Of a stretch of DNA of 64,000 bases, positions 3,278 through 27,163 are shown in pieces. The notes beneath the pieces are model-generated. The model had not been told where the DNA came from, did no database searches, and saw nothing but the letters and a program-made list of their open reading frames with translations. The stretch spans positions 53-64,052 of the forward strand of contig JAQTTY010000009.1 in NCBI GenBank assembly GCA_028710525.1. Reading direction: 5' to 3'. Positions within the stretch are counted from its first letter, which is position 1. Each line of letters begins with the position of its first letter. The position numbers were made by a program, and so were the translations under genes. Origin of the DNA: Gallionella sp. (GTDB lineage Bacteria > Pseudomonadota > Gammaproteobacteria > Burkholderiales > Gallionellaceae).

Positions 3278-3302
3278 GTCTAACTCTCCTATTAAAAAGG
3301 GG

Positions 3303-4790
3303 TTACAAACCAGCGGCTGTTTTGATCAGCTGGAACACTTTCGTGTTGTCGATACTGCCGAAGAAGTTGGAGGAACCCATGCCGATAGCACCTAGGAATA
3401 CATCCGTACCACCATGTGTCTCCGCACCGACAGCTGTCTGGATGACGGCTTCTTGGTGATAAAGATCTGCGCTGGTAGTTGCCTCAGTTAAGGCCAAACC
3501 TGCGCGAGTGGCATTTCTGCTTTCTCCATTACCGAAACCGATGATCGAGTACGGTGCAAGGTCAGCGTCTAAATCAAACAAACCTGTAACGTAGTTTTTC
3601 ACTAGGCCAAGCACACCAGGATTAGCAGGGGTAGTTGCGCCTGTGCGTTGAGCATAGCCATTGAGCACCAATGTATGGTCATGATCCGCTGTCACCACAA
3701 TCAGGGTATTGGCCATAGTTGGATCGGTGAGCTTAACTTTGTCGATGGCGGCTTTGATCGCATTGTCAAAGGCTACGGTATCCTGCAGCGCTTTTTTGGC
3801 GTTGGTGCTATGCAATGCGTGATCGATACGCCCGCCCTCCACCATTAGGAAATATCCATTGGAATGCTGCGACAGAATATCCATGGATTTAGTCGTCATT
3901 TCAGCCAAGCTTGGTTGTGTTGCCCCGGCACCGACACCTGCTGTTGTCTGAGCGATACGATCCAAGTCGTATTCCAAATGACTCTTTGCAGAATACAAAC
4001 CTATGAACTTCTTAGCATTTGACGCTGCCAACATATCGGCTTTGGTCTTGGCGACCGTATAACCTTTTGCAGCAAATTCAGCAGTCATATCGCGTGCGTC
4101 AGCACGTCCTTTTGGATTGGTGACTGCGACGTAGGGGGTAAAGTGATTCAACCCGCCACCCATCAGCACATCTACGCCATCCAACAATGCGGAGTTGTAG
4201 CCCAGGCCACCGGGTACCAGTTGTGCTGCGATGTGGTACTGCGCATTACGGTTACAGATGTGCGAGTAAGTTGCAGCAGGTGTCGCATGGGTCAGCTCGG
4301 TTGTTGTGATTGCACCTACTCCCCATCCTTTGGACTTGGCAAGTTCAAGCAAAGTAGGAATAGATGCGCCGTTACCCGCTGCGCAATTGTTGATACCAAG
4401 GTTACCATTCGCGTCCAAGCTGGGCGGAGTGGCAACAGTACTCGGTGTCATCGAAATGACTTCATTGTTAGTCTTCACGCCCGTCATGTATGCCGCCATA
4501 GAAGGCGCACTGTCAGTTACCTGAGCATCATTTGAGTATGTCTTTACAAAAGCTGATTCAGGCAGAGTGTCGATGGTCAGACTCCCTGCTTCGCCCACTG
4601 AAAAAATTCTCGCGGCAGTCAAAGTTGTCATACCCATGCCATCACCCAAGAAAAAAATCACATTTTTCTTAATGGCAACTGGAGCGACTGCGTTTGGTGT
4701 TGTAGTACCACCGCAGCCCGCCAATAACACGCCACACGTTAGCAATCCTACTGCCGTTCTCATCCTTATCAAATCTGGTTTCATGATCAT
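3303..4790 (-). CDS. Alkaline phosphatase (PhoA family), lipoprotein paralog
   Basis: Lipobox LLAGC. Same motif set as the upstream paralog (FFLGDGMG, TDSAPS, EGGRIDHALH, VTADHDH). Sits in tandem with the 1808-3277 gene. Confidence 0.85.
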   Translation of the reverse strand: MIMKPDLIRMRTAVGLLTCGVLLAGCGGTTTPNAVAPVAIKKNVIFFLGDGMGMTTLTAARIFSVGEAGSLTIDTLPESAFVKTYSNDAQVTDSAPSMAAYMTGVKTNNEVISMTPSTVATPPSLDANGNLGINNCAAGNGASIPTLLELAKSKGWGVGAITTTELTHATPAATYSHICNRNAQYHIAAQLVPGGLGYNSALLDGVDVLMGGGLNHFTPYVAVTNPKGRADARDMTAEFAAKGYTVAKTKADMLAASNAKKFIGLYSAKSHLEYDLDRIAQTTAGVGAGATQPSLAEMTTKSMDILSQHSNGYFLMVEGGRIDHALHSTNAKKALQDTVAFDNAIKAAIDKVKLTDPTMANTLIVVTADHDHTLVLNGYAQRTGATTPANPGVLGLVKNYVTGLFDLDADLAPYSIIGFGNGESRNATRAGLALTEATTSADLYHQEAVIQTAVGAETHGGTDVFLGAIGMGSSNFFGSIDNTKVFQLIKTAAGL

Positions 4791-5189
4791 CTCGCCGCTG
4801 GTTGAAGGAGTGGCTAAGGTAGTAATCGAGCATTTCAGTAAGGTTAAATTTAAGTTAATTATTTACATCGGGACGATGCGACGTACTCAGGGAAATGAAA
4901 ATCAACTCTAAAGTGGGTGATGCACTCGAAGAGAGAATCGGATTGATTCTATGGCTGTTCTCCACTCAGGAGCTGTCATTCGAATTCTCAGATTAAGCTT
5001 CAAATTCAGCAAACCACCACCGACCGTTATGGCCGATCAGCCGCCCATCATAATTGAAGGTGAATCTCTTTCGACTTCCCCACAATTTCCGTGCATGGAT
5101 GTGTGGAGTCATTGTGGATATCCCGTTAATTGTCTTTGCGCTTAGCAAGATGTAATGGCTGTGCAAATATCGAGCACCATGCATTAGTT

Positions 5190-5295
5190 AAAAAAATGCC
5201 CCCGTGCAATCGCACCGAGGGCATAACATCTTAACGGGGTGTCAAGATACACGTTTCAGGGAGGAGACTCGTGTAGTCAGCTCGCGCCAACTTTT
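5190..5295 (-). ncRNA. Structured sRNA with a CUCCUCCC loop (copy A), anti-Shine-Dalgarno type
   Basis: On the minus strand: GNRA-loop hairpin (5276-5291). A hairpin ACACG/CGTGT encloses the loop AGUCUCCUCCCUGAAA. A further hairpin 5228-5248 has loop ACCCC. The terminator stem is 5198-5222 followed by U7. About 85 percent identical to copy B, with compensatory stem changes. Confidence 0.6.
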
Positions 5296-5424
5296 ACGTA
5301 GACTTAGCTCTGTTAAATTAGTTCCGAGCTAGTTGAGGATTTTTTTGAATGACACCTCATATATAATTGGTAGCTCAACACTCCATGAATATAGCTGCAG
5401 GAAAATCAGCAGCTAGAGCCAGAT

Positions 5425-5706
5425 ATGACCCGCTCCGAACTCATCCAACAAATCTCATCTCGTTTTCCTCAACTGACTGCTACCGATGTCGATATGGCCG
5501 TGCGGGTGATCATGGATTCGATGTCGAAAGCATTGGCTAGAGGAGGGCGCATCGAGGTGCGCGGATTCGGTAGCTTCGGTATCAATTACCGTCCACCACG
5601 GAAGGGGCGCAATCCTAAGTCGGGCGCATCGGTTATGGTGCCAGCTAAATATACGCCACACTTTAAGGCGGGCAAGGAGCTGCGCGATCGTGTTGATAAG
5701 GCCTAG
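5425..5706 (+). CDS. ihfB: Integration host factor subunit beta
   Basis: 93 aa. Strong similarity in the core to E. coli IhfB (RIE.RGFGSF....R.PR.GRNPK.G..V....KY.PHFK.GKELRDR). Confidence 0.9.
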
Positions 5707-11767: not shown

Positions 11768-13423
11768 ATGATCGACGACATCAAGAAAACCCTTTGGGCG
11801 ACCGCCGACAAGTTGCGCGCCAACATGGATGCGGCTGAGTACAAGCATTTGGTGTTGGGTCTGATCTTCGTCAAATATATTTCCGATACCTTTGCCGCGC
11901 GCCGTGCCGAATTAGGTCGCCGCTTTGCTGATCCTAAAGACGACTACTACCTCGACGACGCCGCGCTGTTTGCCGACGAGTTGGAAGACCGCGACTACTA
12001 CAAAGAAGTGAACGTATTTTGGGTGCCAGAAAGTGCGCGTTGGGAAGCGTTGCGCGCTGCGGCCAAGCAGCCGGACATCGGCAAGCGCATCGACGATGCG
12101 CTGACAGTTATCGAAGCAGAAAATCCTAAGCTCAAGACCATCCTCGACAAGCGCTATGCCCGCGCGCAGTTGCCGGATGGCAAGTTGGGCGAGCTGGTGG
12201 ACATGGTTTCCACCATCGGTTTTGGCGTTGATCCCGGCAAAGCGCGGGATGTGCTGGGGCAGGTCTATGAATATTTCCTGGGTCAATTTGCTAGCGCCGA
12301 AGGAAAGCGCGGCGGGCAGTTCTACACGCCTGCCAGCATCGTCAAAACCTTGGTCGCTGTGCTCGCGCCGCATCACGGCAAGGTGTATGACCCCTGTTGC
12401 GGGTCGGGTGGGATGTTCGTGCAATCAGAAAGATTTATCGAAGCGCACGGCGGCAAGATAGGTGACGTGGCAATCTTCGGGCAGGAATCCAACCCCACTA
12501 CATGGCGCTTGGCGGCGATGAACCTCGCTATACGTGGTATCGACTTCAACCTCGGCCGTGAGCCGGGCGACACCTTCACTAAGAACCAGCACACCGATCT
12601 ACGTGCCGATTTTATTCTGGCCAACCCGCCGTTCAACATCAGCGACTGGTGGCACGGCAGCCTGACGGGTGATCCGCGCTGGGTATATGGCGACCCACCG
12701 CAGGGCAACGCCAACTATGCATGGCTGCAACACATGCTGTATCACCTCAAGCCCACAGGGCGCGCAGGCATCGTGCTGGCGAATGGCTCGATGAGCTCCA
12801 GTCAAAACAGCGAGGGCGAGATACGCAAAGCCATGGTCGAAGCCGACGTAGTGGAAGTGATGATCGCGTTGCCCGGCCAACTGTTCTTCAACACCCAGAT
12901 ACCCGCCTGCCTGTGGTTTCTTGCCAAACAAAAAACCACAAGACAAGGCGAAGTGCTGTTCATTGACGCACGCAAACTCGGCAGCATGATTAGTCGTGTG
13001 CAAACCGAATTCACCGATGAAGTGATAGAACGTATTGCCGCTACGGTTGCCGCATGGCGTGGCGATACCGTAGGGGCGCAATTTATTGCGCCCGAATCAG
13101 CAGGGCGCGATGAATCACGCCCCTACGCAAAAACCGCTCGCCCTGAGCCTAATAATTCCGTTCGCCCTGAGCCAGTCGAAGGGGGGCACTACGCAGACAT
13201 CCCCGGCTACTGCCGCAGTGTGAAGCTAGAAGAAATCGCCGAACACGGCCACGTCCTCACTCCCGGTCGTTACGTCGGTGCGGAAGAGGTGGAAGACGAT
13301 GACGAAGCTTTTGCCGACAAGATGCAGAAGCTCACCGAAAAACTGGGCGAGCAAATGGCGAAAGGAGCAGAGCTAGACGCTTTGATCCGGCACAAGCTGG
13401 GAGGGCTGGGGTATGAGTTCTGA
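11768..13423 (+). CDS. hsdM: Type I restriction-modification system methyltransferase subunit HsdM
   Basis: N-terminal HsdM_N-like segment. SAM motif [10 protein letters not shown] and catalytic NPPF ([13 protein letters not shown]). Overlaps the hsdS start. Carries a REP-like in-frame insertion at about 13070-13186. Confidence 0.9.
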
Positions 13424-14774
13424 GCAAACTCGCTCACTTCGAGATTTTGTTAGCCTTCAACGAGGAACAACCTACAAAGGAAATCTCGTTGGACTGCCCG
13501 GGCCTGTATTGCTGGGTTTAGCATCAATTAAACCTAACGGTGGTTTCCGTTATGGTGGTTTCAAAACTTATGGCGGTGAGTGTCCAGAGAAAATATCTCT
13601 TCGATCCGGTGATTTGTACGTATCGCTAAAAGATGTCACTCAATCAGGTGACTTACTCGGCTCCGTTGCTAAAATTCCTACTGATATTGAATCAGGTCGT
13701 CTCACTCAAGATACCGTCAAACTGGTTTTTGATGGCGCGCCAACTTCAAAGGACTACCTTTACTGGTTACTTCGAACCCCAGCATACCGTGATTACTGCC
13801 GAGGTTGTGCCACTGGAACCACAACTTTAGGACTAGCAAGGGATGACTTCCTCAACTACCCAGTTCCCAATCCTAGTGAAGCAGATATGGTGTTGGTTGA
13901 GCTGCTAGAAGGAATTGAGAAGCGTATTACCCTTCTGAGCGAAACCAACGCCACGCTGGAAGCCATTGCGCAGGCGATGTTCAAATCGTGGTTTGTCGAT
14001 TTCGATCCCGTCCACGCCAAACAACAAGGCCTCGCCCCCGAAGGCATGAGCGAAGCCATACCCGCAAGGGGTACGCCGGTGTGTGCCCCGGGCGTTCCGC
14101 CCGACCCTTCCGCTGCCGCCGCGCTATTCCCCGACAGCTTCGAGGAATCGGAACTGGGCTTGGTGCCGAGGGGGTGGCGCACAAGTGCTGTGTACGATCT
14201 GGCGCAGTACATCAATGGTGCTGCATATAAAGCATTTGAGCCGAACGCTGAGCAACGCGGTCTGCCGATTATTAAGATTGCAGAACTTAAAGCTGGCGTT
14301 ACTAAACAGACAGGTTATTCAGATGTCAGCATGCCTGAAAAATACAGGATAGCTACTGGAGATATTTTGTTCTCTTGGTCTGGAAATCCTGATACATCCA
14401 TTGATACTTTTGTCTGGCTTCATGGCGACGCTTGGCTCAACCAGCATATCTTCCGAGTTGTTCCAAGTACATCAAGTGACCGTTCATTTGTCTTGATGAC
14501 GCTCAAGTACCTGAACCCAATATTCGCAGAGATTGCACGAAATAAACAAACCACAGGGTTAGGCCATGTAACTGTTGCCGACTTGAAAAGGCTGCGTGTA
14601 GTTAAACCGAGTGATGCAGTGCTTCAGCAATGGAATGAGATTGTTGATCCATTGATTGAGAGAGCATTAAATGTTCAGCAGCAAGCCCAAACCCTCGCCA
14701 CCCTCCGCGACACACTGCTCCCCCGCTTGATTGCTGGCAAAATTAGTATTTCAGGACAGGAGGGGGTTGTATGA
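13413..14774 (+). CDS. hsdS: Type I restriction-modification specificity subunit HsdS
   Basis: Two low-GC target-recognition domains separated by high-GC conserved helices ([35 protein letters not shown]). Sits in an operon with hsdM. Confidence 0.85.
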
Positions 14775-15325
14775 AGTTACGGCTATTTTCATCGGTCATT
14801 ATTTTCCTGAGTGCTTATTCACCGCTTGCCATTATTTTCTGCATTCAGAATTATGATTTCGAGAAACAAGAAATGCTGCACCCGCACATTATTTGGCCGA
14901 TTCTTGGCTTGGCAGTGGTGAGCTGCATTATTTTGTGGGCAACAGTGAGTCTTCCAAAAGTTTCAAAAGCACCAGTTACCGTTAGAGCGGTATCAAACAA
15001 GTCGAGCGAGTTGGTCAGCTACACGATCCCGTACATGGTTTCCTTTTTTGTAATTGAACACTGGAATACCCAGCTTCTCATTAGCTTTGCCTTTTTCATG
15101 TTCATCATGTTTTGGTTGACGCTCAAAACGCACACTATCTTCAACAACCCTATTCTTGCCATGTTGGGATACAACATCTTTGATGTGCATTATGAAAAGA
15201 ATGGCAGGGAGTATCAAGATTACTGGCTGGCGAAGGGCGGGCGACTAAGGAAAAACGAGCAATGCCGGATTGTTGAAATTTCAGAGCAACTTTATCTAGT
15301 CACAGAACGTAACCCAGAGGTGTAA
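14771..15325 (+). CDS. Four-TM membrane protein, KwaA-like (Kiwa component A candidate)
   Basis: 184 aa with about 4 predicted TM helices and a cytosolic tail. ATGA overlap with the hsdS stop and a strong SD (GGAGGGGG). About 38-40 percent GC inside an hsd operon of about 58 percent GC. Confidence 0.5.
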   Translation: MKLRLFSSVIIFLSAYSPLAIIFCIQNYDFEKQEMLHPHIIWPILGLAVVSCIILWATVSLPKVSKAPVTVRAVSNKSSELVSYTIPYMVSFFVIEHWNTQLLISFAFFMFIMFWLTLKTHTIFNNPILAMLGYNIFDVHYEKNGREYQDYWLAKGGRLRKNEQCRIVEISEQLYLVTERNPEV

Positions 15326-15327
15326 GC

Positions 15328-16272
15328 ATGGAAGAAAAAAAGAAGCTGCTTGCTAAAATTAAATCACTTGACTGGTCTCGTGCCAGCGTTTCTCTCTACT
15401 TGATCAAACGCACGCTAGTTCATCGACAAGCCACCTACGATGTTCTGCAAGTCAATGCCGATGATAAGTTGCGAAAAAGGTTGAGAGGCATTGCTAGCAG
15501 CAAGATTCAGCAGTCAAACAATGCACTTGAATATGACTTCCATACCGCCGATTTAGATGACAACCTTCTTGGTATTGCCACATCTGAAACAGATTTCCAA
15601 GACATTATAGATGTCATTGCCGCAGAAGATGAACCGGGCTTTGCGGATTCAATTGAACAGTTAATTGACTCGTGGCTCTATATCGCTCGCTTAGATATTG
15701 CTGGGAAACCGCCGATGTATGCGGCACGACGCGTATCCGAGGGCTGGACAACGAAGAAGGTCTCGCAGCTTATCAGCATGATTTTCCAAGACAACATGCT
15801 GGTTGATATTGAGCAGAAAGAGATATTCCGAATAGACGGGAAGGTGGATTTTTTCTCCTACGATGGCACGACGTTCATAGCGGACAAGAAGAATTTCGAG
15901 ACCGCCCTGAACTTCAGGGAAGGAATGGAACGTAACCGCGATGAAATTGTAGATGAGTTCCATTCCCTCAATCTGTTTGAGAATGCCGCTGAGATTTCGG
16001 CCTTGGTCGGTGACAACATTCGTCGTTTGCGACGATTGTCTCAAGTCAAGAAAGCTGCTTATTACAAGGATGCCAACTTTTTGGCGAATCTAAAAAGAGT
16101 GAATGCTGAAGAAGGCTGGGGGATAAAGTATTCCGCACATGGGAAGCTGTTAGTCACAGAGGAAGACATTGAAATAGTTTTGCGTGTACTGAATAACGAC
16201 CGCTTAACATCGAAGATAAACTCCGAAAATTTTGATGTCGATGTGAAGCATAAGCTAGGTAGTCCAACTTGA
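15328..16272 (+). CDS. Soluble 314-aa protein, KwaB-like (DUF4868-like; Kiwa component B candidate)
   Basis: Starts 3 nt after the membrane-protein stop, with SD GAGGTG. Size and pairing with a 4-TM partner match Kiwa. The family was assigned from memory and not searched. Confidence 0.45.
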   Translation: MEEKKKLLAKIKSLDWSRASVSLYLIKRTLVHRQATYDVLQVNADDKLRKRLRGIASSKIQQSNNALEYDFHTADLDDNLLGIATSETDFQDIIDVIAAEDEPGFADSIEQLIDSWLYIARLDIAGKPPMYAARRVSEGWTTKKVSQLISMIFQDNMLVDIEQKEIFRIDGKVDFFSYDGTTFIADKKNFETALNFREGMERNRDEIVDEFHSLNLFENAAEISALVGDNIRRLRRLSQVKKAAYYKDANFLANLKRVNAEEGWGIKYSAHGKLLVTEEDIEIVLRVLNNDRLTSKINSENFDVDVKHKLGSPT

Positions 16273-16374
16273 TATGATTCTGCGACACGTTGCTCCCCAC
16301 TGATTTCTGACCAACTGCAACTGCCGGAAGCCTGTGCCGCGCTGGAAGAAGCTTAAAATGTCGCGACTTCAATT

Positions 16375-16427
16375 AGTCAGCAACCTGCTGACTAATTTTA
16401 TATTTGGGCAGCACGCTGCTGCCCAAA
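16375..16427 (+). terminator. Two consecutive stem-loops ending the hsdM-to-15328 operon
   Basis: AGTCAGCA-ACC-TGCTGACT (16375-16393) and TTTGGGCAGCA-CGC-TGCTGCCCAAA (16403-16427). No clean U-tract, so termination efficiency is uncertain. Confidence 0.45.
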
Positions 16428-16451
16428 TGAGTAGATGGATGCAAATCATTC

Positions 16452-16503
16452 GTAGGTCGGGTTACGCTACTCTCTCGTACACTTAAGGGTGAACCCGACC
16501 TAC
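16452..16503. repeat. REP-like palindromic element
   Basis: 12-bp perfect inverted repeat GTAGGTCGGGTT / AACCCGACCTAC with a 28-nt spacer. Confidence 0.6.
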
Positions 16504-16549
16504 CAAAGACGACGAAAAGCGCATGAATGTGCTTGTATCATTTCTGCCA

Positions 16550-16642
16550 TTTTCTATACACGGCGCGGATGGAATGTATAAAAAATCGCGTTTTCTATAC
16601 ATGCTCAGGATAGAATGTATAGAAAATCGACTTTCCTATACA
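16550..16642 (+). promoter_or_regulatory. 41-bp direct repeats (2.3 copies) containing TCTATACA-N-TGTATAGA inverted repeats, upstream of fic-hsdR
   Basis: Units at 16550-16590 and 16591-16631 plus a partial unit 16632-16642. The last copy ends about 25 bp before the fic start codon. Confidence 0.5.
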
Positions 16643-16666
16643 AACCCTGAATGAGGATGCGCTGAA

Positions 16667-17740
16667 ATGACCTCCATCTTGCCCTTGGAACAACTGAAAG
16701 CCGGTCGCTTCGATACGCCTGCTATCCTTAAGAAGTTGGCGAGTAGTAGCCGTAAGCTGGCGGAGCTTAAGGGCATCGCGGCATCCATTCCCAATCAGGG
16801 CATTCTGATCAACACGCTGGGCATGCAGGAAGCCAAGGATAGTTCAGAAATCGAGAACATCGTCACCACGCAGGATGAAATTTTCAAGCAGGAAGTGTTA
16901 CCCGATGCTTTTGCCAATCCGGCTGCCAAAGAGGTACAACGTTATCGGCAGGCTTTGCGGCTGGGCTATGAGCAGGTGCGGGAGAGTGGGCTGATTACGG
17001 CAAATCACATCATCGCGATTCAATCAGAGTTAGAACAAAGTCATGCGGGGTTTCGCAAGTTGCCTGGCACCGCATTGAAAAACAACCGTGGTGAGACGGT
17101 TTATGCCCCGCCACAAGACCCAAGCGAGATCATTGCGCTGATGCGGGATCTGGAGCGATTTATCAATGATGATGCGTTGTATCAGGTCGATCCGCTGATC
17201 AAGATGGCTTTGTTACATCATCAGTTCGAAAGTATTCATCCGTTCTACGACGGCAATGGTCGCACTGGGCGCATTTTGAATGTGCTGTATCTGGTTAAGG
17301 AAGGCTTACTGGAGGTACCAGTGCTGTATTTGAGCAGCCATATCGTGCGCACCAAGGCAGATTACTACCGCTTGTTGCAGAAGGTGCGCGATGATGATGC
17401 GTGGGAAGAATGGGTGTTGTATATGCTGGAGGCAGTGGAACAAACCGCCGGGCAAACCCTGACTACGGTGCAAGACATTAAGGCTGCTTTATTCGACTAC
17501 AAGCACCGCATCCGTGCGGGGTTTAAGTTTTATAGTCAGGATTTGATCAATAACTTGTTTGCGCACCCTTATACCAAAATTGAATTTGTACAACGCGACT
17601 TGGGCGTGTCGCGCCTGACAGCTACCAAATATATTGATGCATTGGCTGAAGCGGGATTTGTGCAGAAACATAAAATCAAGGGCAGCAATTACTACATCAA
17701 TGTCGCGCTGAATCAGATTCTGCTGGGAAATCAGCAATGA
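16667..17740 (+). CDS. fic: Fic family protein (AMPylase/Fido domain with Fic-N and a C-terminal wHTH)
   Basis: Canonical motif [13 protein letters not shown]-terminal PN.GILIN.L...EA..SSEIENI pattern. Stop overlaps the hsdR start (ATGA). Confidence 0.85.
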
Positions 17741-20700
17741 CCGAAGACCAACTCGAACAGGAAGCACTAGGCTGGCTTGCGGCAGTGGGCTACTCGCATT
17801 TGTACGGCCCCGATATTGCAGTTGATGGCGATAGTCCTGAGCGTAGCGATTATCGGCAGGTGGTGCTGGTGGAGCGTTTGCGTTCTGCCGTTGCGCGACT
17901 AAATCCGGCGATCCCTGCGGCGGCGCGTGAGGATGCGATTGGGCAAGTGCTTGATCTAGGTACACCAGTGCTGCTCTCCGCTAATCGGCGTTTCCACCAA
18001 CTGCTGGTGACGGGCGTGCCGGTGCAATATCAGAAAGACGGCGAGACACGCGGCGACTTTGTGCGGCTGATCGATTGGGCTGATTCATCATTCCCTCCCC
18101 CTGGCAGGGGGAGGGCTAGCGAGGGGGTGGGAACGCTATCGTCCAAAGCATCTACCCCCATCCCAACCTTCCCCCTGCAAGGAGGAAGGAGTGAGTTTGA
18201 TGTCAACGGTTCATCTGGCCTAAACGAGTTCCTCGCCATCAACCAGTTCTCCATCAAGGGCGCACACCACACGCGCCGACCGGACATCATCCTGTTCGTG
18301 AATGGCTTGCCGCTGGTGTTGCTGGAACTTAAAAATCCCGCTGATGAAAACGCAGACATCTGGAAAGCCTACGACCAGATTCAAACTTATAAAGAGCAAA
18401 TTTCCGACGTGTTTCTGTACAACCAGATTCTGGTGATATCGGACGGCAGCGAGGCGCGTTTGGGTTCGTTGTCGAGCGATGCCGAGCGCTTTATGCAGTG
18501 GCGTACGATTGATGGTGCGACGCTTGATCCGTTGGGACAATTCAATGAGCTTGAAACGCTGATACATGGCGTGCTCGCGCAAGCTTATCTGCTCGACTAC
18601 CTGCGCTACTTTGTGTTGTTTGAAGATGACGGCACGCTGGTGAAGAAGATTGCGGGCTATCACCAATTCCATGCGGTACGTGCGGCGATCAATCAGGTGG
18701 TGGTGGCTTCGCGCCCCGGTGGCACGCACAAGGGTGGAGTGGTGTGGCACACGCAAGGGAGCGGCAAGAGCATCACCATGACTTGCTTTGCCGCGCGCGT
18801 GATGCAGGACGTGGCGATGCAGAATCCGACTATTGTGGTCATCACCGACCGCAACGATTTGGACGGGCAGTTGTTCGGCGTGTTTTCGCTGGCGCAGGAT
18901 TTGTTGCGCGAACAACCCGTGCAAGCCAATACCCGCCAAGACTTGCGCGCCAAGTTGGGCAACCGTCCTTCCGGTGGCATCGTCTTTGCGACGATACAGA
19001 AGTTCATGCTGGGCGAGGATGAGGACACTTTTCCTATCTTGTCTGAACGCAGCAATATCGTGGTGATCGCCGATGAAGCGCACCGCACGCAATATGGCTT
19101 CGAGGCCAAGCTCAAGTCCATCAAGACACCCCGTGTGGCGGCAAACGATGCACAAATCTTGCAGGTTGCCGAAGCGCCCGCCGAGTATTTGTCACGCTTC
19201 CAAGTGGGCTATGCGCAGCATCTGCGCGATGCTTTGCCCAATGCCACCTTCGTTGCCTTTACCGGCACGCCAGTCTCCAGCGAGGACCGCGACACCCGTG
19301 CGGTGTTTGGCGACTACATCCATATATATGACATGCAGCAGGCCAAGGAAGATGGCGCGACCGTGGCGATCTACTTTGAGTCGCGTCTGGCTAAGTTGTC
19401 GCTTAAGAGCGAAGAGCTACCTTTGCTGGACGATGAAGTGGACGAGCTGGCCGAGGATGAAGAGGAAAGCCAGCAAGCCAAACTTAAGAGCCGCTGGGCT
19501 GCGCTAGAACGAGTGGTCGGTGCGGAGCCGCGTGTTGCCAGTGTGGCTAAAGACTTGGTGGCGCATTTTGAGGAACGCAGCAAGGCGCAGACCGGCAAGG
19601 CGATGGTGGTGGCGATGAGCCGCGAGATTTGCGTGCATCTGTATAACGAGATCATCAAGCTGCGCCCCGATTGGCATGATGCCGATCCTGAAAAGGGCGC
19701 GATCAAGATTGTGATGACCGGCTCGGCCAGCGATAAGGCGTTGCTGCGTCCGCATATCTACAGTGGCCAAGTGAAGAAGCGTTTAGAGAAACGCTTCAAA
19801 GACCCTGCTGATCCGCTGCGGATGGTGATTGTGCGCGATATGTGGCTGACGGGTTTTGATGCGCCTTGCGTGCATACCTTATATGTAGATAAACCGATGA
19901 AGGGCCACAACCTAATGCAGGCCATCGCGCGGGTGAACCGCGTTTTCAAAGATAAACAAGGCGGCTTGGTGGTGGACTACATCGGTATCGCCAATGAATT
20001 GCGCAGTGCCTTGAAGGAATACACCAACAGCAAGGGGCGCGGCCGACCAACGGTGGACGCCCACGAAGCTTATGCCGTGCTCGAAGAAAAGCTCGATGTG
20101 TTGCGCGGCATGCTGTGCGACTTCGACTACAGCGACTTTTTAACGCATGGCCACAGGATGTTGGCCGGTGCGGCCAACCATGTGCTGGGTTTGAAAGACG
20201 GCAAGAAACGTTTTGGCGATACCGCGCTGGCGATGAGCAAAGCCTTTACCTTGTGCTGCACCTTGGATGAAGCCAAGGCGGTGCGTGAAGAGGTGGCCTT
20301 CTTCCAGGCAGTTAAAGTCATCCTGACCAAACGCGACATCAGCCAGCAGAAACGTACCGACGAAGCGCGTGAACTGGCGATCCGGCAGATCATAGGCTCG
20401 GCGGTGGTGTCCGAAGAAGTCGTGGATATCTTCAATGCGGTGGGCTTGGATAAGCCCAACATCGGCATTCTGGATGATGCTTTCCTCGCTGAGGTGCGCA
20501 ATCTGCCAGAACGCAATCTGGCGGTGGAGTTGCTGGAGCGTCTATTAGAAGGCGAAATCAAAACCCGCTTCGCAGGCAACATCGTGCAAGACAAGAAATT
20601 CTCTGAGTTGCTGTCCGATGTCATCAAGCGCTACCAGAACCGTGCTATCGAGACGGCGCAAGTCATCGAAGAATTAATCGAGATGGCTAAGAAATTCAGG

Positions 20701-21015
20701 GCGGCGGCGGAGCGGGGCGATGAACTAGGCCTGACTGAAGATGAGATTCGCTTCTACGATGCGCTGGCGGACAATGAATCGGCAGTACGCGAACTGAGCG
20801 ATGAGATCCTGAAGAAGATTGCCCATGAGCTGACTGAAAACCTACGCCAGAACCTAAGTGTGGACTGGTCGCAACGCGAAAGTGTGCGGGCCAAGCTGAG
20901 ATTGATGGTGAAACGCATTCTGCGTAAATATAAGTATCCGCCTGACATGCAAGATGCGGCGGTTGAGCTGGTCTTGCAACAGGCACAGGCACTAGGGGAG
21001 GCGTGGGGACGGTAG
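17737..21015 (+). CDS. hsdR: Type I restriction endonuclease subunit HsdR
   Basis: 1092 aa. Nuclease-domain segment [20 protein letters not shown], Walker A TQGSGKS and the DEAH box ([10 protein letters not shown]). REP-like in-frame insertion at about 18086-18225. Confidence 0.9.
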
Positions 21016-21232: not shown

Positions 21233-21541
21233 TCAATAATCAACTGCTGATTCGTCCCAATCCTCTCGCTGGTCCAAATCAATTTCAATGTGATTGGGCT
21301 GCGAATCAATCCTAGCTCCCTTGTGATTCCAAGGTAAGTCGACTGCAGATCCCATGTGATTCCAAGGTAAGTCGACTGCAGATCCCATGTTGATCCAAGG
21401 TAGATCGACTGCAGATCCCATGTAATTCCAAGGTAGATCGACTGAATTTCCTTTGATATTCGATTTCAGCTCATTCCCAAAACGAACATTAATTCGACTG
21501 TATTCCATCGGCTTTTTGCAGCAATTGTGTAGCACTCTCAA
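21233..21541 (-). CDS. Questionable ORF encoding 11-residue repeats (GSAVDLPWNHM)
   Basis: 102-aa ORF whose core is the 33-bp tandem repeat. No SD or motif support. Confidence 0.25.
   Translation of the reverse strand: MRVLHNCCKKPMEYSRINVRFGNELKSNIKGNSVDLPWNYMGSAVDLPWINMGSAVDLPWNHMGSAVDLPWNHKGARIDSQPNHIEIDLDQREDWDESAVDY
21323..21447. repeat. 33-bp tandem repeat, about 3.7 copies (gtgattccaaggtaagtcgactgcagatcccat)
   Basis: Copies at 21323-21355 and 21356-21388 are identical, 21389-21421 is a variant, and a partial copy starts at 21422. Confidence 0.85.
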
Positions 21542-21797: not shown

Positions 21798-22005
21798 GCT
21801 ACTATTGTTCGCACTTGCAATGGATTTACAATTGATTCAGGAAGCTCCCAAATTGGATTCAGGACTTAGTTGGGATGCACTCAGGACATGTCTGAAGAGA
21901 GCGCATACCAATTTGATGGAAGTGAATTTCATTTACTTGATACACATAGGTGTTTAAGTCTTTCCCTACTCACCAAGTACTAGAACAAGTTGCTAAAATA
22001 AGAGC

Positions 22006-22662
22006 ATGTGCAGCCACTACGAAACAGTGAATGACCTCCAGTCCCTAAAGTCACACTTCACAGTGGCGGAGGTGCCTGAAATCGGCAGGCTCGACCTTTG
22101 GCCTGGATACTTGGGACCCTTTATAAAGAACCAAGAGAGTTCATCAGAAGGAGCTCGCCACGCTCTACTCGGCTCGTTTGGCCTAGTACCCCATTGGGCG
22201 TCTGACACCAAGATTGCTCGCAATACCTACAACGCGCGCTCAGAGACTGTTGCCGATAAACCTAGCTATAGAGATGCATGGCGTTTAGGGAGAAGGTGCA
22301 TCATCCCAGCAGGTGCGGTATATGAGCCTGACTGGCGATCGGGAAAAGCTGTCGCTGCTCGTATTTCGCGTGTGGATGGCAAACCGATGGGAATAGCTGG
22401 CTTATGGTCGGTGTGGAAAGATGCAAAGGGCGATATCCTGCACAGCTACACAATGCTGACCATCAATGCGGACGATCATCCACTAATGAATCAATTCCAT
22501 AAGCCGGCAGATGAAAAGCGCATGGTTGTGATTCTCCCTGAGAATGAGTATGGTAATTGGTTGTGCTCTGATACAAACGGGGGGCGTGCATTCTTGCAAG
22601 CGTACCCAGCTGAGCTCCTAACGAGTGAATCCAAGTTAGCGAATGGAAATAAGGTGGCATGA
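22006..22662 (+). CDS. SOS-response-associated peptidase (SRAP/YedK family, abasic-site DNA-protein crosslinking)
   Basis: Starts with MC (catalytic Cys2). 218 aa. Family-typical NARSET and P-M-AGLW segments. Confidence 0.75.
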   Translation: MCSHYETVNDLQSLKSHFTVAEVPEIGRLDLWPGYLGPFIKNQESSSEGARHALLGSFGLVPHWASDTKIARNTYNARSETVADKPSYRDAWRLGRRCIIPAGAVYEPDWRSGKAVAARISRVDGKPMGIAGLWSVWKDAKGDILHSYTMLTINADDHPLMNQFHKPADEKRMVVILPENEYGNWLCSDTNGGRAFLQAYPAELLTSESKLANGNKVA

Positions 22663-22763
22663 CGACGAACCGATTGCCTCAATGAGCAGTATCAGCAAAG
22701 TCATCTACCAAAAATATTTTTATGTAACGATTGAACTGATTTGTTTTGAACCACTCTCAACCT

Positions 22764-22868
22764 GCAGTTAGCGAAAGCTTGCTGCACGAATCTCCTCCCT
22801 GAAACGTGTGTCTCGACACCCTGTTGAGATGTTCCGCCCCTGGTGCGATTGCACAGGGGCATTTTTTT
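22764..22868 (+). ncRNA. Structured sRNA with a CUCCUCCC loop (copy B)
   Basis: GAAA-tetraloop hairpin 22764-22785. Stem CACG/CGTG encloses the loop AAUCUCCUCCCUGAAA (22791-22800 core). Hairpin TCTCGAC-ACCCT-GTTGAGA at 22811-22829. Terminator stem 22836-22860 followed by T7 (22862-22868). Confidence 0.6.
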
Positions 22869-23051
22869 GCCTGCACAAAGTAGGCTCAAGATTTGCACTG
22901 CACCAGCATCTAGTTTAGTTCAAATGCATTCATATGGATTTCCACACATTGGCGCACGGGATATGTGGGTAAGTCCATATACTCGCCTATAAATTCTGCT
23001 AGAACGGTTTACAACAATCCTTGAATCTATCGCATACCAAGTTGGCGTCAT

Positions 23052-23120
23052 ATGCATAATTATGCATTTATATTGATTGACAGTGTATATGTATGCATAT
23101 AGCATTTGTTTTATGCATAT
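23052..23120 (+). promoter_or_regulatory. Putative sigma70 promoter with ATGCAT-type operator repeats upstream of the AAA+/S8 pair
   Basis: Perfect 16-bp palindrome ATGCATAATTATGCAT (23052-23067). TTGACA (23077-23082), N17, then TAGCAT (23100-23105). Further TATGCATAT copies at 23092-23100 and 23112-23120. Confidence 0.45.
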
Positions 23121-23141
23121 TTCTATCAAATAATATTATAA

Positions 23142-24329
23142 ATGGATCACTTCTCTATCATCTTGGGGCTTTGTCGTTCCGCTTTGCAAACATCCAATCC
23201 GGCTGTGGTAGGTCATGTCCAGCGCCTTGTACGGGCACTTGAAAAGGATAATGTTCCTCAACAGGTTAGTGCGTTAAAAAAGCTAATGGCGTCAGAGGAA
23301 GCGTTGGCCGAGATTACCCCAAGTCGCGTTGTTTTATCTCGTAGGTCATTGTCTGGAGAAATACTTACGCCAAGCGTTACGTCACCAGTCGACAAAGAAA
23401 CTGGGGCGCCATTAGCTGAAATTGTGCATGCCCGAAAAGGGGATGCTCTACAGCCACTATTCATTCCCGCACTTGCAACTGGAATAAATACTCTACTTGA
23501 AGAGTGGTCTCACGTTGACGAGTTACGAGCAGCCGGTGTGCGTCCAGCATTAGCCACTATGCTCTTTGGTGCACCTGGTACAGGCAAAACAATGCTTGCA
23601 CACTATATTGCCGCACAACTGGAGCTGCCGCTAATAGTGGCCCGATTAGATGGGCTTATATCATCGTTTCTTGGTACAACGGCTCGTAACATTTCCAATC
23701 TATTTTCGTTTGCAAACCGATACAAGTGTGTACTCTTACTTGATGAGTTTGATGCGGTTGCAAAGTTGCGTGACGACCCACACGAATTGGGTGAAATAAA
23801 ACGTGTAGTAAATACTCTTCTGCAATGTATTGATAGTCGCTCAGAGCTCGGATTTACCATAGCAATCACGAATCATGAATCTCTCCTTGATCCTGCAGTC
23901 TGGCGACGTTTTGATGTTCGAATTGAGGTACCGAAGCCGAACGCACTAACCCGCGTTGAGATTTTGCGTCGTCAGTTTGATGCGTCCATGTTGGATGAGA
24001 CATACCTTAGATTTTTGGCGTGGATTACTGATGGCTATAGCGGTTCGGATGTGGAAAAACTGGCGGATTTTTTGAAGAGGCAAAAGGCTATTCAAAAAGC
24101 AAACTTTGATTTCTTCACTGGGGTGAGAAGCTATGTACAGATGAGCGCCTATGAAGGAGGATCGCATAATCGATCGTTGGTAGCAGCAGACCAAGAAATT
24201 CTTGCGCGTACCTTAGTTAGTGATGAATCTATACCATTTAGCCAGGAACAATTGGCAACACTGTTTGGGTGTACTCAGCCGACTATTAGTCGTTGGCTAA
24301 AGAATAAAACAATTAGTGGAGTTAAATGA
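23142..24329 (+). CDS. AAA+ ATPase with a C-terminal HTH (IetA-like)
   Basis: Walker A GAPGTGKT, Walker B VLLLDEFD, arginine-finger region. C-terminal LATLFGCTQPTISRWLKNK HTH. Stop overlaps the next start (ATGA). Confidence 0.7.
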   Translation: MDHFSIILGLCRSALQTSNPAVVGHVQRLVRALEKDNVPQQVSALKKLMASEEALAEITPSRVVLSRRSLSGEILTPSVTSPVDKETGAPLAEIVHARKGDALQPLFIPALATGINTLLEEWSHVDELRAAGVRPALATMLFGAPGTGKTMLAHYIAAQLELPLIVARLDGLISSFLGTTARNISNLFSFANRYKCVLLLDEFDAVAKLRDDPHELGEIKRVVNTLLQCIDSRSELGFTIAITNHESLLDPAVWRRFDVRIEVPKPNALTRVEILRRQFDASMLDETYLRFLAWITDGYSGSDVEKLADFLKRQKAIQKANFDFFTGVRSYVQMSAYEGGSHNRSLVAADQEILARTLVSDESIPFSQEQLATLFGCTQPTISRWLKNKTISGVK

Positions 24330-26746
24330 TGGCAAATAACCCAATACAAATCGTGTTGAATGCTCAGAATTATGTTCAGCGTTCTGATATAAATCCAGGC
24401 GGAGCCAATAAAGATTTTTATGCTGGGAGAAATGAGGATTTTGTTAGGCATCGTGAATCTATAACGACTCAACTTAATGAACTTCAGCAGGTATTTGGGG
24501 GGGCACAACTGGATGAGGTTTTCTATGCTCGAGTAGACTTGCAATCGGAAGCTTGGGCCAAAAGCCACAGGCCCATTCAAAAGGTATTCTCAACGCGAAA
24601 TCAGTTGTATATAGGTGCTGCTGAGCTTGGATCAATGGTTGTCGAACTAACTCCAGCAGATATTCCTAGAATTGTTTCAGTAGTAGCTTCTGCTGAAACT
24701 GTGGTTGCTCAGGTTGAAAAGAACGGTAAGCTTATCGCAAAACCTTCGCGTATTCGCAGTGAAGTTGGTGCCATCAAATCAGTTCGTAGATATGCTGCCG
24801 CTGATCGACGTAACTTTTCTGCAGAGCAGGCTGCTCTCTGGTTGGCCGATCCTAGGACCGGTGGTGCTTATTACGTGGAGACCTTCCTTTCTTGGAAGAC
24901 GGTTGAAGGCAGGGGCTCAGAGGGTTTTAAAGCACGCGGAGCACGTGTACTTTCTAAATTCGAAACCGGACTGAATGGACTGAATCTGCCGATTGAGGTA
25001 TCACGCGCATCAGATCAGTGGATAAATGCTTCCATTTACATTATCAAAGTAAACGCGAAAATTTTAGATAATCCAACTGATGCAGTTAGCATTCATGCAG
25101 CTTTACTTGAATTTCTTGATAATCAGGCTGCAGTTAAGACGATTCTTCTGCCGCCTATTTTACAGGCGGCACAGATTGGAGACGGGGGAGAAGGTTCGCC
25201 AATAATTCCGCCACCTACTAATGACCGTACTTATCCGATAGTTGGAATAATCGATACAGGTGTTAGTAAATATCCTGCACTTAATGCATGGAGCGCAGGA
25301 TCAATAGATTTTTTGGATGTCGAAACGCAAGATGTTTCGCACGGCACATTTATCGCGGGATTAGTTGCGGCGGCGGATGTGCTAAATGCGAATCCGATAT
25401 TTTCAGAAACAAAATGCCGTTATTTTGATTTAGGCTTGCACCCAACGGCTGAAGGGGTATATGGCGATTATTACCCTAATGGCTTTCTAGACTTCCTTGA
25501 GCAATTGGATGCCGAGCTACCCGCTGCAAAGGATATGGGCGTAAGGGTATTTAATATGAGTCTTTCCGTCACAACGCCTGTTGCGGATGATGGATATAGC
25601 TTATTCGCCAACCTACTTGATGAAATATCTGACAAGCATGATGTTTTGTTTATCCTGCCATCAGGAAATCTAGACAGTGGCCTTGCTCGTGATGAGTGGC
25701 CACTAAATCCGAATGATGCAATGGCTATGCTTGCAGCATACCCATTTGCAGGACAAGATCGTATTTTTCAACCGGCCGACAGCATCCGCTCTATCGTAGT
25801 TGGGGCGTTGGATCCGCAAACTACTGCGGGTGGATTTTTGCCATCAAGGTACACCCGTCGTGGTCCTGGGCCATCGCTTGGTGCCAAGCCTGATGTAGCG
25901 CATGTCGGCGGGAAACTCGATACCAACAGTGGGTTATATTCAGTTTTGCCAACTGGCGAGGCGATTCAAAGCTGTGGAACAAGCTATTCTTCCCCCCTTG
26001 TTGCCAAAACTGTCGCGGCACTAGACCACGCCATTGAGGGTGACATTTCGCGCGAAGCTCTCACCGCACTGGTAATTCATCATGCTGATACGCCATCTAG
26101 TCTCGATAAGCCAGTTTTACGTCCAATTTCTCACCACTTCGTAGGTGCAGGGATTCCTCGTCATGCAGCTGAAACACTACTCGTTGAGGATTATGAGATA
26201 ACACTAGTATTCAATGGAACTTTGGTGAACGGGCATGAACTCCGTTTCAACTTTGCATGGCCAACTAGCCTTGTAGGTACAAATGGTGGATGCTCAGGTG
26301 ATGTCAAACTGACTTTGGTATATCGCCCTCCAACCGATCGCAAGTTTGGTGGTGAATTTGTGCGAATTAATCTCGATGCATACCTTCGTCAGGAAGAGGT
26401 TAATTCAGACACCGGTGAGATTAGTTTTAAGGGGCGTCTAAAAGGTGATGGAACAAAGCAGCTTGAAAAGGAATTAGTAAAGCACGGGGCGAAGTGGTGG
26501 CCAGTAAAAAGATTAAAAGGGAAATTTAAATCAATCGGTAAATCATCTCAGTGGAGGCTTGTAATCGATCCGCTTGCGCGAAGCGAGTTTGTAATGCCAG
26601 AGAGCGGAATACCGTTTTCAGCAATCCTGACAATTTCCGACCCAGAGGAAGCTGCTCCAATTTTCAATCAAATGCGATTGCAGCTCCAAAATGCGGGGGC
26701 TAATGTCTCAGATATTCGGTCCGCTCTCCGTACCCGCATACGTTAA
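24326..26746 (+). CDS. S8 subtilisin-like serine peptidase with large unknown N- and C-terminal regions (IetS-like)
   Basis: Catalytic triad motifs GIIDTGV (Asp), HGTFIAGLVAA (His) and GTSYSSPLVA (Ser). 806 aa with no signal peptide, so predicted cytoplasmic. Confidence 0.75.
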   Translation: MMANNPIQIVLNAQNYVQRSDINPGGANKDFYAGRNEDFVRHRESITTQLNELQQVFGGAQLDEVFYARVDLQSEAWAKSHRPIQKVFSTRNQLYIGAAELGSMVVELTPADIPRIVSVVASAETVVAQVEKNGKLIAKPSRIRSEVGAIKSVRRYAAADRRNFSAEQAALWLADPRTGGAYYVETFLSWKTVEGRGSEGFKARGARVLSKFETGLNGLNLPIEVSRASDQWINASIYIIKVNAKILDNPTDAVSIHAALLEFLDNQAAVKTILLPPILQAAQIGDGGEGSPIIPPPTNDRTYPIVGIIDTGVSKYPALNAWSAGSIDFLDVETQDVSHGTFIAGLVAAADVLNANPIFSETKCRYFDLGLHPTAEGVYGDYYPNGFLDFLEQLDAELPAAKDMGVRVFNMSLSVTTPVADDGYSLFANLLDEISDKHDVLFILPSGNLDSGLARDEWPLNPNDAMAMLAAYPFAGQDRIFQPADSIRSIVVGALDPQTTAGGFLPSRYTRRGPGPSLGAKPDVAHVGGKLDTNSGLYSVLPTGEAIQSCGTSYSSPLVAKTVAALDHAIEGDISREALTALVIHHADTPSSLDKPVLRPISHHFVGAGIPRHAAETLLVEDYEITLVFNGTLVNGHELRFNFAWPTSLVGTNGGCSGDVKLTLVYRPPTDRKFGGEFVRINLDAYLRQEEVNSDTGEISFKGRLKGDGTKQLEKELVKHGAKWWPVKRLKGKFKSIGKSSQWRLVIDPLARSEFVMPESGIPFSAILTISDPEEAAPIFNQMRLQLQNAGANVSDIRSALRTRIR

Positions 26747-27036
26747 TCCAAGGAAAATATTTTTTAAGCACGACTAATCCTCAGAATTACCTAGGGGGAA
26801 AGTATTTCCCCCTAAATCAGTATGAGCCGAATCATGCATGGGCTTCTTACTGGCTCAATCAGAGGAGCCAAGGAAGAATTAACGTTAGGGCATGTCCACT
26901 TTCTCTAGGGACGAAAAAGATGTTTGCTTGGCAATATGCGAAGTCTGGAATTTTGACAAATCACAGCTAAATGGCTGTACAGGTAGGCTAGCCCAAGTGC
27001 TCCGCAGGATGGTGGGTAGCATGGTGGGATGAAATG

Positions 27037-27072: not shown

Positions 27073-27163
27073 TGGCGGAGAAGGGGGGATTCGAACCCCC
27101 GTTGGGATATTATCCCAAACACGCTTTCCAGGCGTGCGACTTAAACCACTCATCCACCTCTCC
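27073..27163 (-). tRNA. tRNA-Ser (anticodon GGA)
   Basis: The reverse complement reads GGAGAGGTGGATGAGTGGTTTAAGTCGCACGCCTGGAAAGCGTGTTTGGGATAATATCCCAACGGGGGTTCGAATCCCCCCTTCTCCGCCA. It has a 7-bp acceptor stem, anticodon loop CUGGAAA, a long variable arm, a GTTCGAATC T-loop and an encoded CCA. Confidence 0.9.

Follow-up and report, generated by a model that had tools for sequence, protein, structure and literature searches.

The hemB/anti-hemB motif was first described by Weinberg 2007 (PMC1950547), and anti-hemB is listed in Rfam as RF02837 ("Burkholderia RNA 7"). In Burkholderia cenocepacia J2315 it corresponds to the small RNA (sRNA) ncS04, a 105-nucleotide (nt) transcript by Northern blot and 3' rapid amplification of cDNA ends that is reported to bind Hfq (PMC5688073). 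The CU-rich unpaired regions of such sRNAs have been argued to occlude ribosome-binding sites, and overexpression of ncS27 from the same organism slows growth (PMC5688073). The Cuckoo/CcsR family (321 RNAs in 78 genomes, alpha-proteobacteria only) carries its motif in each of 2-4 hairpins, and its expression depends on the stress sigma factors RpoHI/HII (PMC4615179). For anti-hemB, catalogued since 2007, no demonstrated function was found in the literature searched. Here we describe a diverged anti-hemB-family RNA, copy B, at positions 22766-22868 on the forward strand of a 64,000-nt (64-kb) stretch of Gallionella sp. contig JAQTTY010000009.1, which is referred to as the window, and its sole relative within that window, copy A, at 5190-5292 on the reverse strand. 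Judged from its sequence, copy B is probably a functional, independently transcribed sRNA of ~103 nt, an anti-hemB paralogue now residing in the accessory DNA of a Gallionella-like genome. That it is an sRNA gene of the anti-hemB family can be stated with high confidence. The first-pass annotation of this DNA treated the RNA as unnamed, which is incorrect because the family is a known one (RF02837; PMC1950547).

Copy B consists of four hairpins in series, beginning with a 5' hairpin and ending in a terminator; between them lie a stem with a 16-nt loop and a further hairpin. The 5' hairpin (22766-22783; AGUUAGC-GAAA-GCUUGCU) is predicted by both the fold and the family model. Stem 1 (22784-22809) is a 5-bp helix, GCACG/CGUGU, around the 16-nt loop AAUCUCCUCCCUGAAA, and is predicted by the fold, Rfam and the family model. 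This loop contains the motif UCUCCUCCCUG (22791-22801), complementary to Shine-Dalgarno (SD) sequences. The remaining loops are GAAA, ACCCU and GAUU, and the anti-SD motif occurs in one loop only. The 8-mer CTCCTCCC within it (22792-22799) is not significant by itself, with 3 matches in the window against 1.28 by chance. The second stem-loop (22810-22830; GUCUCGAC ... GUUGAGAU) is a 9-bp hairpin found in the fold and the family model. The intrinsic terminator (22836-22868), GCCCCUGGUGC-GAUU-GCACAGGGGC, has a G+C-rich stem of 10 base pairs with a single bulged G, and is followed by A and U7; a simple terminator scan did not pick it up, presumably because of the bulge. The minimum free energy (MFE) of the 105-nt stretch 22764-22868 is -42.4 kcal/mol, compared with a shuffle mean of -27.0 (z = -4.8), and none of 200 shuffled sequences is as stable. 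The sequence and architecture reported in the first-pass annotation are thus borne out. Its 3' end at 22868 also stands, whereas the family covariance model places the 5' end at 22766, 2 nt inside the earlier start of 22764.

Copy B matches RF02837 with 36.7 bits (E = 6e-5; 22783-22868) and copy A with 36.1 bits (E = 9e-5) when the whole window is searched, in both cases over model positions 1-81 of 81. No other sRNA family in Rfam is convincing for either copy at E-value reporting, and at gathering thresholds the window yields tRNA only. The core architecture of anti-hemB, in which a stem with the UCUCCUCCCUG loop precedes another hairpin and a terminator with a U-run, is present in the MFE fold and in both model alignments. 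Relatives were gathered with the pattern TCTCCTCCCTGA(R)-N44..75-T7. Among the metagenome matches listed, 79 of 120 pass an architecture filter, and ~6 of 31 matches on viral contigs have the same architecture, some of them above the RF02837 threshold (e.g. 58.9 bits on contig L012). Covariance model R1 consists of 26 metagenomic RNAs, none from the window, and extends to the 5' hairpin, which is not part of the Rfam model. All 20 of the 20 seed loci re-tested are bona fide anti-hemB RNAs, with RF02837 scores of 57.7-78.2 bits. In the window R1 finds exactly two matches, copy A (53.4 bits) and copy B (52.8 bits, E = 1.2e-10), both full-length (model positions 1-107 of 107) and both at E ~1e-10.

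The alignment of 85 relatives, guided by the model, shows covariation throughout the predicted structure. Overall 95% of cells pair, compared with 72.5% in column shuffles and 38-45% when the partners are slid, and double changes occur at all 30 of 30 pairs (548 cells against 139 in shuffles). Compensatory changes are seen at 7/7 pairs of the first helix, where 93% of cells pair, at 8/8 pairs of the third and at 10/10 pairs of the fourth, the terminator. In the second helix 98% of cells pair, and the pair 51/72 occurs as CG (56), AU (24), UA (3) and GC (2). RNAalifold on a plain MAFFT alignment had found stem 1 alone because the variable-length hairpins were misaligned, and that alignment was replaced by the model-guided one. 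Since the relatives were selected on the exact loop motif, the sample is silent on conservation of the loop; the claim that the loop is conserved rests on the Rfam consensus and on the comparison of copies A and B. Together, the fold, the Rfam match, the R1 match and the covariation agree with the earlier proposal of a structured sRNA gene with an anti-SD loop and its own terminator.

Searches at the primary sequence level return few relatives. BLAST of the 105 nt against plasmid and phage collections gives no match, an exact 16-mer scan of viral contigs gives three chance matches only, and a strict 19-mer scan of 185,579 species genomes gives two real relatives, both orthologues of copy A, and three chance matches. 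These orthologues lie in a Gallionellaceae metagenome-assembled genome (MAG) and in a beta-proteobacterial MAG. The host of the window is beta-proteobacterial, as anti-hemB requires: proteins at least 90% identical to those of the window are labelled Gallionella sp. At the level of the models, both copies are members of anti-hemB, and they are diverged, sub-threshold paralogues located off the canonical locus.

Copies A and B form a 103-nt inverted repeat (arms 5190-5292 and 22766-22868) that is 84% complementary. A second copy of matching architecture had been noted before, and it does exist at this position, with 84% identity to copy B. There are 16 differences in the 103 nt, nine of which fall at positions paired in both folds and none of which breaks a pair. 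Two pairs show double compensatory changes, U-A to C-G in the second hairpin and C-G to U-A in the terminator. The 16-nt loop differs by a single change, at a flanking base. The homology of the two copies continues beyond the terminator into a tail of ~130 nt (22869-22998 after copy B, 5050-5189 after copy A) and stops at the boundary of the IetAS cassette. Motifs shared by the tails are GCUC.A.AUUUGCAC and CCACACAU...GCACGG.A..UGUGGG.AAGUC in RNA letters (GCTC.A.ATTTGCAC and CCACACAT..GCACGG.A..TGTGGG.AAGTC in DNA letters), the second of which holds a CCACA/TGTGG inverted repeat. The tail has no conserved open reading frame (ORF) and no Rfam match. A small ORF considered there was rejected on reading the alignment, as the frames differ between A-type copies and B.

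Copy B resembles other anti-hemB RNAs in its beta-proteobacterial host, its length of ~105 nt, the stem with the UCUCCUCCCUG loop, the second hairpin and the intrinsic terminator with a U-tail. It differs from them in several respects. The loop of the window copies is 2 nt longer (...CUGAAACG instead of ...CUGAGCG in the family). CCCCUUU, a second C/U-rich motif in the terminator loop of many canonical members, is absent from both window copies, which have GAUU there. The window also holds two paralogues in inverted orientation, of which one lies within island DNA. Among other members of the family, one metagenome contig (L137, 4900-5217) carries two anti-hemB copies in tandem, separated by 211 nt. 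On an IMG/VR contig (L033, 2969-3124), a copy scoring close to the threshold (49.3 bits) begins a few nucleotides past a tRNA gene, and several relatives are on contigs classified as viral, probably in the host flanks of prophages.

Promoters of the RpoE/AlgU type, recognized by extracytoplasmic function (ECF) sigma-E factors, have the form GGAACTT-N16-TCTGA. Upstream of copy B, a putative -35 element of this type, GAACTG (22733-22738), is followed after 16 nt by a putative -10 element, TCTCA (22755-22759), which lies 6 nt before the start of the RNA at A22766. Both elements are proposed from the sequence and the family motif. No sigma-70 consensus was found upstream of copy B. The corresponding putative promoter of copy A, on the reverse strand, is GAACTA-N16-TCTAC (5324-5319 and 5302-5298). 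The upstream regions were outside the search pattern, so the promoter motif is an independent observation. Of 73 unique upstream regions in the family, 25 contain the strict motif GAACNN-N16-TCTN[AC] (0.14 in shuffled sequences), which always starts 55-59 nt before the loop motif (-57 +/- 2), with copy B in register at -58. A relaxed motif, [GA]AAC-N17..19-[TC]C[TA]NA, is found in 43 of the 73, compared with 1.7 for shuffled sequences and 1 when the opposite strand is read. The upstream consensus of the family is tGGAACTaTTT...tATCTtA, then 6 nt, then the 5' hairpin. The geometry at copy B equals that of canonical members, for example GGAACTA-N16-TCTGA-N6-GAAUG.

These features suggest a mechanism in which a sigma-E (RpoE/AlgU, ECF)-type promoter would drive copy B, and hence tie it to envelope or extracytoplasmic stress. 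Hfq would bind the RNA through the terminator and U-tail. The exposed loop UCUCCUCCCUG, which includes the 16S anti-SD core CCUCC, would pair in trans with GGAGG-type SD regions of several mRNAs, and this pairing would block binding of the 30S subunit and lower translation. Copy B probably raises the dosage of, or slightly retunes, the regulon of copy A, and is probably not dedicated to its neighbours. This chain, from the sigma-E-type promoter through an Hfq-type sRNA to occlusion of SD regions in trans, is a plausible proposal on which we are evenly divided.

Potential targets were screened by folding the loop against positions -30 to +12 of the 51 genes in the window. The best duplex is with kwaA (start at 14771), at -19.2 kcal/mol with the mRNA segment UUUCAGGacaGGAGGGGGUU; the runner-up reaches -13.2, and the 51 genes average -6.3 (standard deviation 3.4). 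In the ribosome-binding region of kwaA (14729-14770; UUUCAGGACAGGAGGGGGUU) the predicted pairing involves the flanks of the loop (UUUCAGG/CCUGAAA) as well as the SD. The duplex energies over the 51 genes correlate with generic 16S anti-SD pairing (r = 0.76), and ~4 sites as good as kwaA occur anywhere in 128 kb of sequence. The pairing with the SD before 14771 proposed in the first-pass annotation is the best in the window, but it is not exceptional by this count, and the kwaA site is a predicted candidate target, a lead rather than evidence. A preference for island genes was not retained: their mean duplex energy (-7.7 over 15 genes) is lower than that of the core genes (-5.7 over 36), but the difference largely follows SD strength and is unconvincing.

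Several known RNA systems resemble copy B in part. MicA, RybB, MicL and VrrA are sigma-E-dependent Hfq sRNAs of Enterobacteria and Vibrio that act through 5'-end seeds on specific outer membrane protein and lipoprotein mRNAs. The proposed logic for copy B is similar, in that an ECF sigma-E-type promoter would produce a short Hfq-type sRNA repressing many mRNAs. However, there is no homology in sequence or structure (no Rfam matches), and copy B presents a generic anti-SD loop. The toxic small RNAs, or double-hairpin sRNAs, of B. cenocepacia (RF02278; ncS03/05/27/62) are alike in their CU-rich unpaired anti-SD segments and in predicted occlusion of the ribosome-binding site, and they too have several paralogues per genome, as do the two copies here. 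These RNAs are ~60-90 nt long with two hairpins, whereas copy B has 103 nt, four hairpins and a single CU-rich loop, and RF02278 has no match at E <= 10 in 22500-23200. The beta-proteobacterial sibling sRNAs NmsR/RcoF of Neisseria (PMC5688073) likewise have CU-rich unpaired stretches complementary to ribosome-binding sites. They differ in architecture and in their tandem arrangement, and there is no Rfam match, with homology judged on Rfam alone. The loop motif of Cuckoo/CcsR (RSs0680, alpha-r14) is nearly identical to that of copy B (CCUCCUCCC there and UCUCCUCCC here) and is also read as anti-SD. However, copy B has the motif in one loop, a beta-proteobacterial host and no model match, so it is not a member, and the likeness is one of convergence or very remote kinship. 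By its predicted features, copy B would work like the CU-rich anti-SD sRNAs (tsRNA/ncS27, NmsR, Cuckoo/CcsR), and also like MicA/RybB/MicL if the promoter is correctly assigned. By membership at the sequence level, it belongs to anti-hemB only.

At canonical loci the family RNA has hemB (porphobilinogen synthase) divergent upstream (50 loci) and engB/yihA convergent downstream (40 loci). Copy A is instead divergent from ihfB (5425-5706), which encodes IHF-beta. Instances of anti-hemB decoupled from hemB have also been noted in a 2026 preprint (10.64898/2026.09.01.748597). A 680-nt block with ihfB and copy A (window 5017-5699) is 91% identical in two MAGs (contigs L005/L178 and L007), one Gallionellaceae and one beta-proteobacterial, while the sequence on either side is different. 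In each of the three genomes a gene for a tyrosine integrase is located within 1-4 kb of the block, and the block itself may mark the edge of an island or be a hot spot of recombination. On the contig of the Gallionellaceae MAG, gloB and tRNA-Ser(GGA) are followed by an unrelated island of 7.9 kb that has an integrase, and then by ihfB and copy A, with one sRNA copy in 20 kb (copy A present, copy B absent). In the window, the interval between ihfB and tRNA-Ser(GGA) (5699-27073) spans 21.4 kb and contains an AAA ATPase, a P4-type integrase, a type I restriction-modification (R-M) system with embedded Kiwa (KwaA/KwaB) and SoFic, SRAP, copy B and IetA/IetS. A metagenome contig that is 99.7% identical has a further integrase after a duplicated 65-nt 3' tRNA fragment, so the slot is actively accreting islands. 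Copy B is thus accessory DNA, and copy A lies on the conserved distal border of the slot.

The modules on either side of copy B are found elsewhere without it. The AAA+/S8 pair downstream is the IetA/IetS defence system (PADLOC E = 6e-155 for IetA and 5e-281 for IetS), and IetA homologues are widespread and mobile. IetAS loci at 90.5% nucleotide identity are homologous from 22999 to 26810, and more distant loci begin at 23049-23310. The homology of copies A and B stops at ~22998, exactly at this boundary, which agrees with the earlier placement of copy B at a junction between modules. R1 has no match (E <= 1) at any of 8 IetAS loci elsewhere (65-90% nucleotide identity). Upstream, SRAP homologues with 77-81% identity occur in four other island contexts, with homology only over 21990-22577, and none of 7 SRAP loci elsewhere has an R1 match (E <= 1). 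The sRNA unit, from 22733 to ~22998, therefore stands alone between two unrelated modules, which does not point to a dedicated regulator of either.

Some observations weigh against the interpretation of copy B as a functional, sigma-E-driven anti-hemB RNA acting in trans. Neither copy reaches the RF02837 gathering threshold of 49.5 bits, and the alignment used for covariation had been fitted to the model, which biases it towards the structure. The hemB-engB synteny of the family is lacking for both copies, as hemB and engB are absent from the window. Copy B is not present in the two related MAGs as far as these are assembled; it is thus dispensable and could be redundant. The assignment of the promoter to sigma-E is made by consensus match alone, and from this we infer dependence; the -10 element of copy A is TCTAC rather than TCTNA, and a Burkholderia-like subgroup of the family has a sigma-70-like promoter, GACAATGGTATATCAT, in place of the sigma-E-type one. 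Burkholderia ncS04 shows no significant expression change in any condition tested (PMC5688073), which a sigma-70-like promoter in that subgroup would fit. hemB as a conserved target was also rejected, since over 49 canonical loci the loop pairs with hemB 5' regions at -10.7 kcal/mol, hardly different from the -10.2 of a reversed loop.

Among other explanations, a protein-coding origin of the conserved sequence can hardly be correct. A 65-amino-acid (aa) ORF overlaps copy B on the reverse strand (22701-22898); it has an open frame and a GTG start, and was listed by the ORF finder. However, it has no Pfam match, its frame contains two in-frame stops inside the RNA in copy A, and of the A/B differences 8, 7 and 1 fall at its first, second and third codon positions, which amounts to 11 non-synonymous codon changes and a single synonymous one. 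The lengths of family RNAs are spread over all residues modulo 3, as opposed to multiples of three, and covariation of the stems accounts for the conservation. The ORF is best regarded as a shadow of the RNA gene rather than a protein gene, as the first-pass annotation had also assumed. Open antisense frames were tried as a family-wide coding test and proved uninformative, since the RNA is short and C-rich and 50 of 67 members have one. It is also unlikely, though less so, that copy B is a functionless relic, duplicated or horizontally acquired and carried along by island turnover. Such a relic would explain why copy B is missing from related MAGs that keep copy A, why it is 16% diverged from copy A whereas the orthologues of A are nearly identical, and why it lies in fast-turnover DNA. 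On the other hand, the four helices and the terminator are all intact, as are the geometry of the promoter and, with its one change, the loop of 16 nt; nine of nine stem differences keep pairing, two of them by double compensation. This would be unexpected under neutral decay at 16% divergence.

The defence genes nearby raise the question of a more specific role. The location of copy B in the variable slot bounded by ihfB and tRNA-Ser, where IetAS, Kiwa, SoFic and type I R-M genes also reside, and the kwaA duplex as the best predicted in the window (-19.2 kcal/mol) would fit a defence-island regulator gating translation of IetAS, Kiwa or type I R-M genes. However, the RNA is lacking at all 8 IetAS and all 7 SRAP loci compared, and the IetAS boundary at 22999 leaves it outside the cassette. 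Elsewhere the family RNA belongs to the core genome, at hemB-engB, copy A has the same loop beyond the island block, and the duplex energies follow SD strength (r = 0.76), with ~4 equally good, chance-placed sites in 128 kb. Comparison therefore gives no support to a dedicated defence-gating role of the kind suggested earlier for the adjacent genes, and we consider it unlikely, slightly more so than a relic. Less probable still is a role in cis or as DNA, in which copy B would mainly terminate the SRAP transcript or form its 3' end, or in which the sRNA gene with its 130-nt tail would be a recombination or attachment site. Copy B does lie ~100 nt past SRAP on the same strand, the A/B homology extends ~130 nt beyond the terminator and ends exactly at the cassette boundary, and integrase genes lie 1-4 kb from the ihfB-copy A block in all three genomes. 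Against this, SRAP homologues elsewhere lack the RNA, copies A and B are inverted rather than direct repeats, neither tRNA-Ser nor tail repeats were found at other module borders, and the conserved promoter of its own argues for independent transcription. An independently transcribed sRNA thus remains the preferred interpretation.

The surrounding DNA has several other features. The IetAS region (22999-26810) is a promoter-to-terminator cassette that elsewhere stands beside Wadjet/BrxR, integrases or GmrSD. Four of the 18 ATGCAT palindromes in the window fall within 67 nt (23052-23118) around a sigma-70-like ietA promoter, TTGACA-17-TAGCAT (23077-23105), and related ietA upstream regions have similar (A)TGCATA motifs. 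This cluster may, judging from the sequence, be an operator for the C-terminal helix-turn-helix domain of IetA. The genes kwaA (14771-15325), kwaB (15328-16272) and SoFic (16667-17740) lie inside the type I R-M operon (11768-21015), flanked by hsdM/hsdS (11768-14774) and hsdR (17737-21015). Start and stop codons overlap at several points in this block, which suggests one composite defence operon. A 41-nt direct repeat (16550-16642; 2.3 copies, 83%) with internal inverted repeats is located just upstream of the SoFic gene and may be a regulatory site. Between hsdR and SRAP, a 102-aa ORF on the reverse strand (21233-21541) contains a 33-nt tandem repeat (21281-21478; ~4-6 copies, 91% matches). 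A near-identical metagenome contig (L009) is 33 nt longer over the aligned stretch, as expected from one additional repeat unit, and this may be a variable-number repeat.

The tRNA-Ser(GGA) gene by gloB is an island hot spot, with different content past its 3' end in three related genomes (window 27073-27163; L009 11068-12281; L178 10822-18851). No remnants of a tRNA-Ser attachment site were found at module borders in the window or in L178, and the 65-nt 3' tRNA fragment was not found at the ihfB end of either island. Downstream of copy A, two tandem alkaline-phosphatase paralogues (1808-4790) are ~70% identical over 300-nt stretches, and related MAGs have RND/OEP efflux genes in this position.

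For annotation, these results mean that the 65-aa ORF is spurious and that the Rfam threshold misses diverged paralogues such as copies A and B. It is conceivable, at long odds, that the island captured a sigma-E-driven anti-SD riboregulator tying membrane-associated defence genes to envelope stress, with the Kiwa gene kwaA, embedded in the type I R-M operon, as the best candidate, or that the sRNA and its 130-nt tail are a docking site for cassettes such as IetAS. If co-option by the island were true, this would be, to our knowledge, an unusual case of a defence island with a host-type global riboregulator. The ability of the RNA to move away from hemB, to duplicate and to survive intact in defence-island DNA argues for action in trans. 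As for the family, it is large in environmental beta-proteobacteria, has a 5' hairpin omitted by the Rfam model, and in a major subgroup has a sigma-E-type promoter at a fixed distance. These additions lead to a testable hypothesis, namely that anti-hemB may be an envelope-stress, anti-Shine-Dalgarno repressor.

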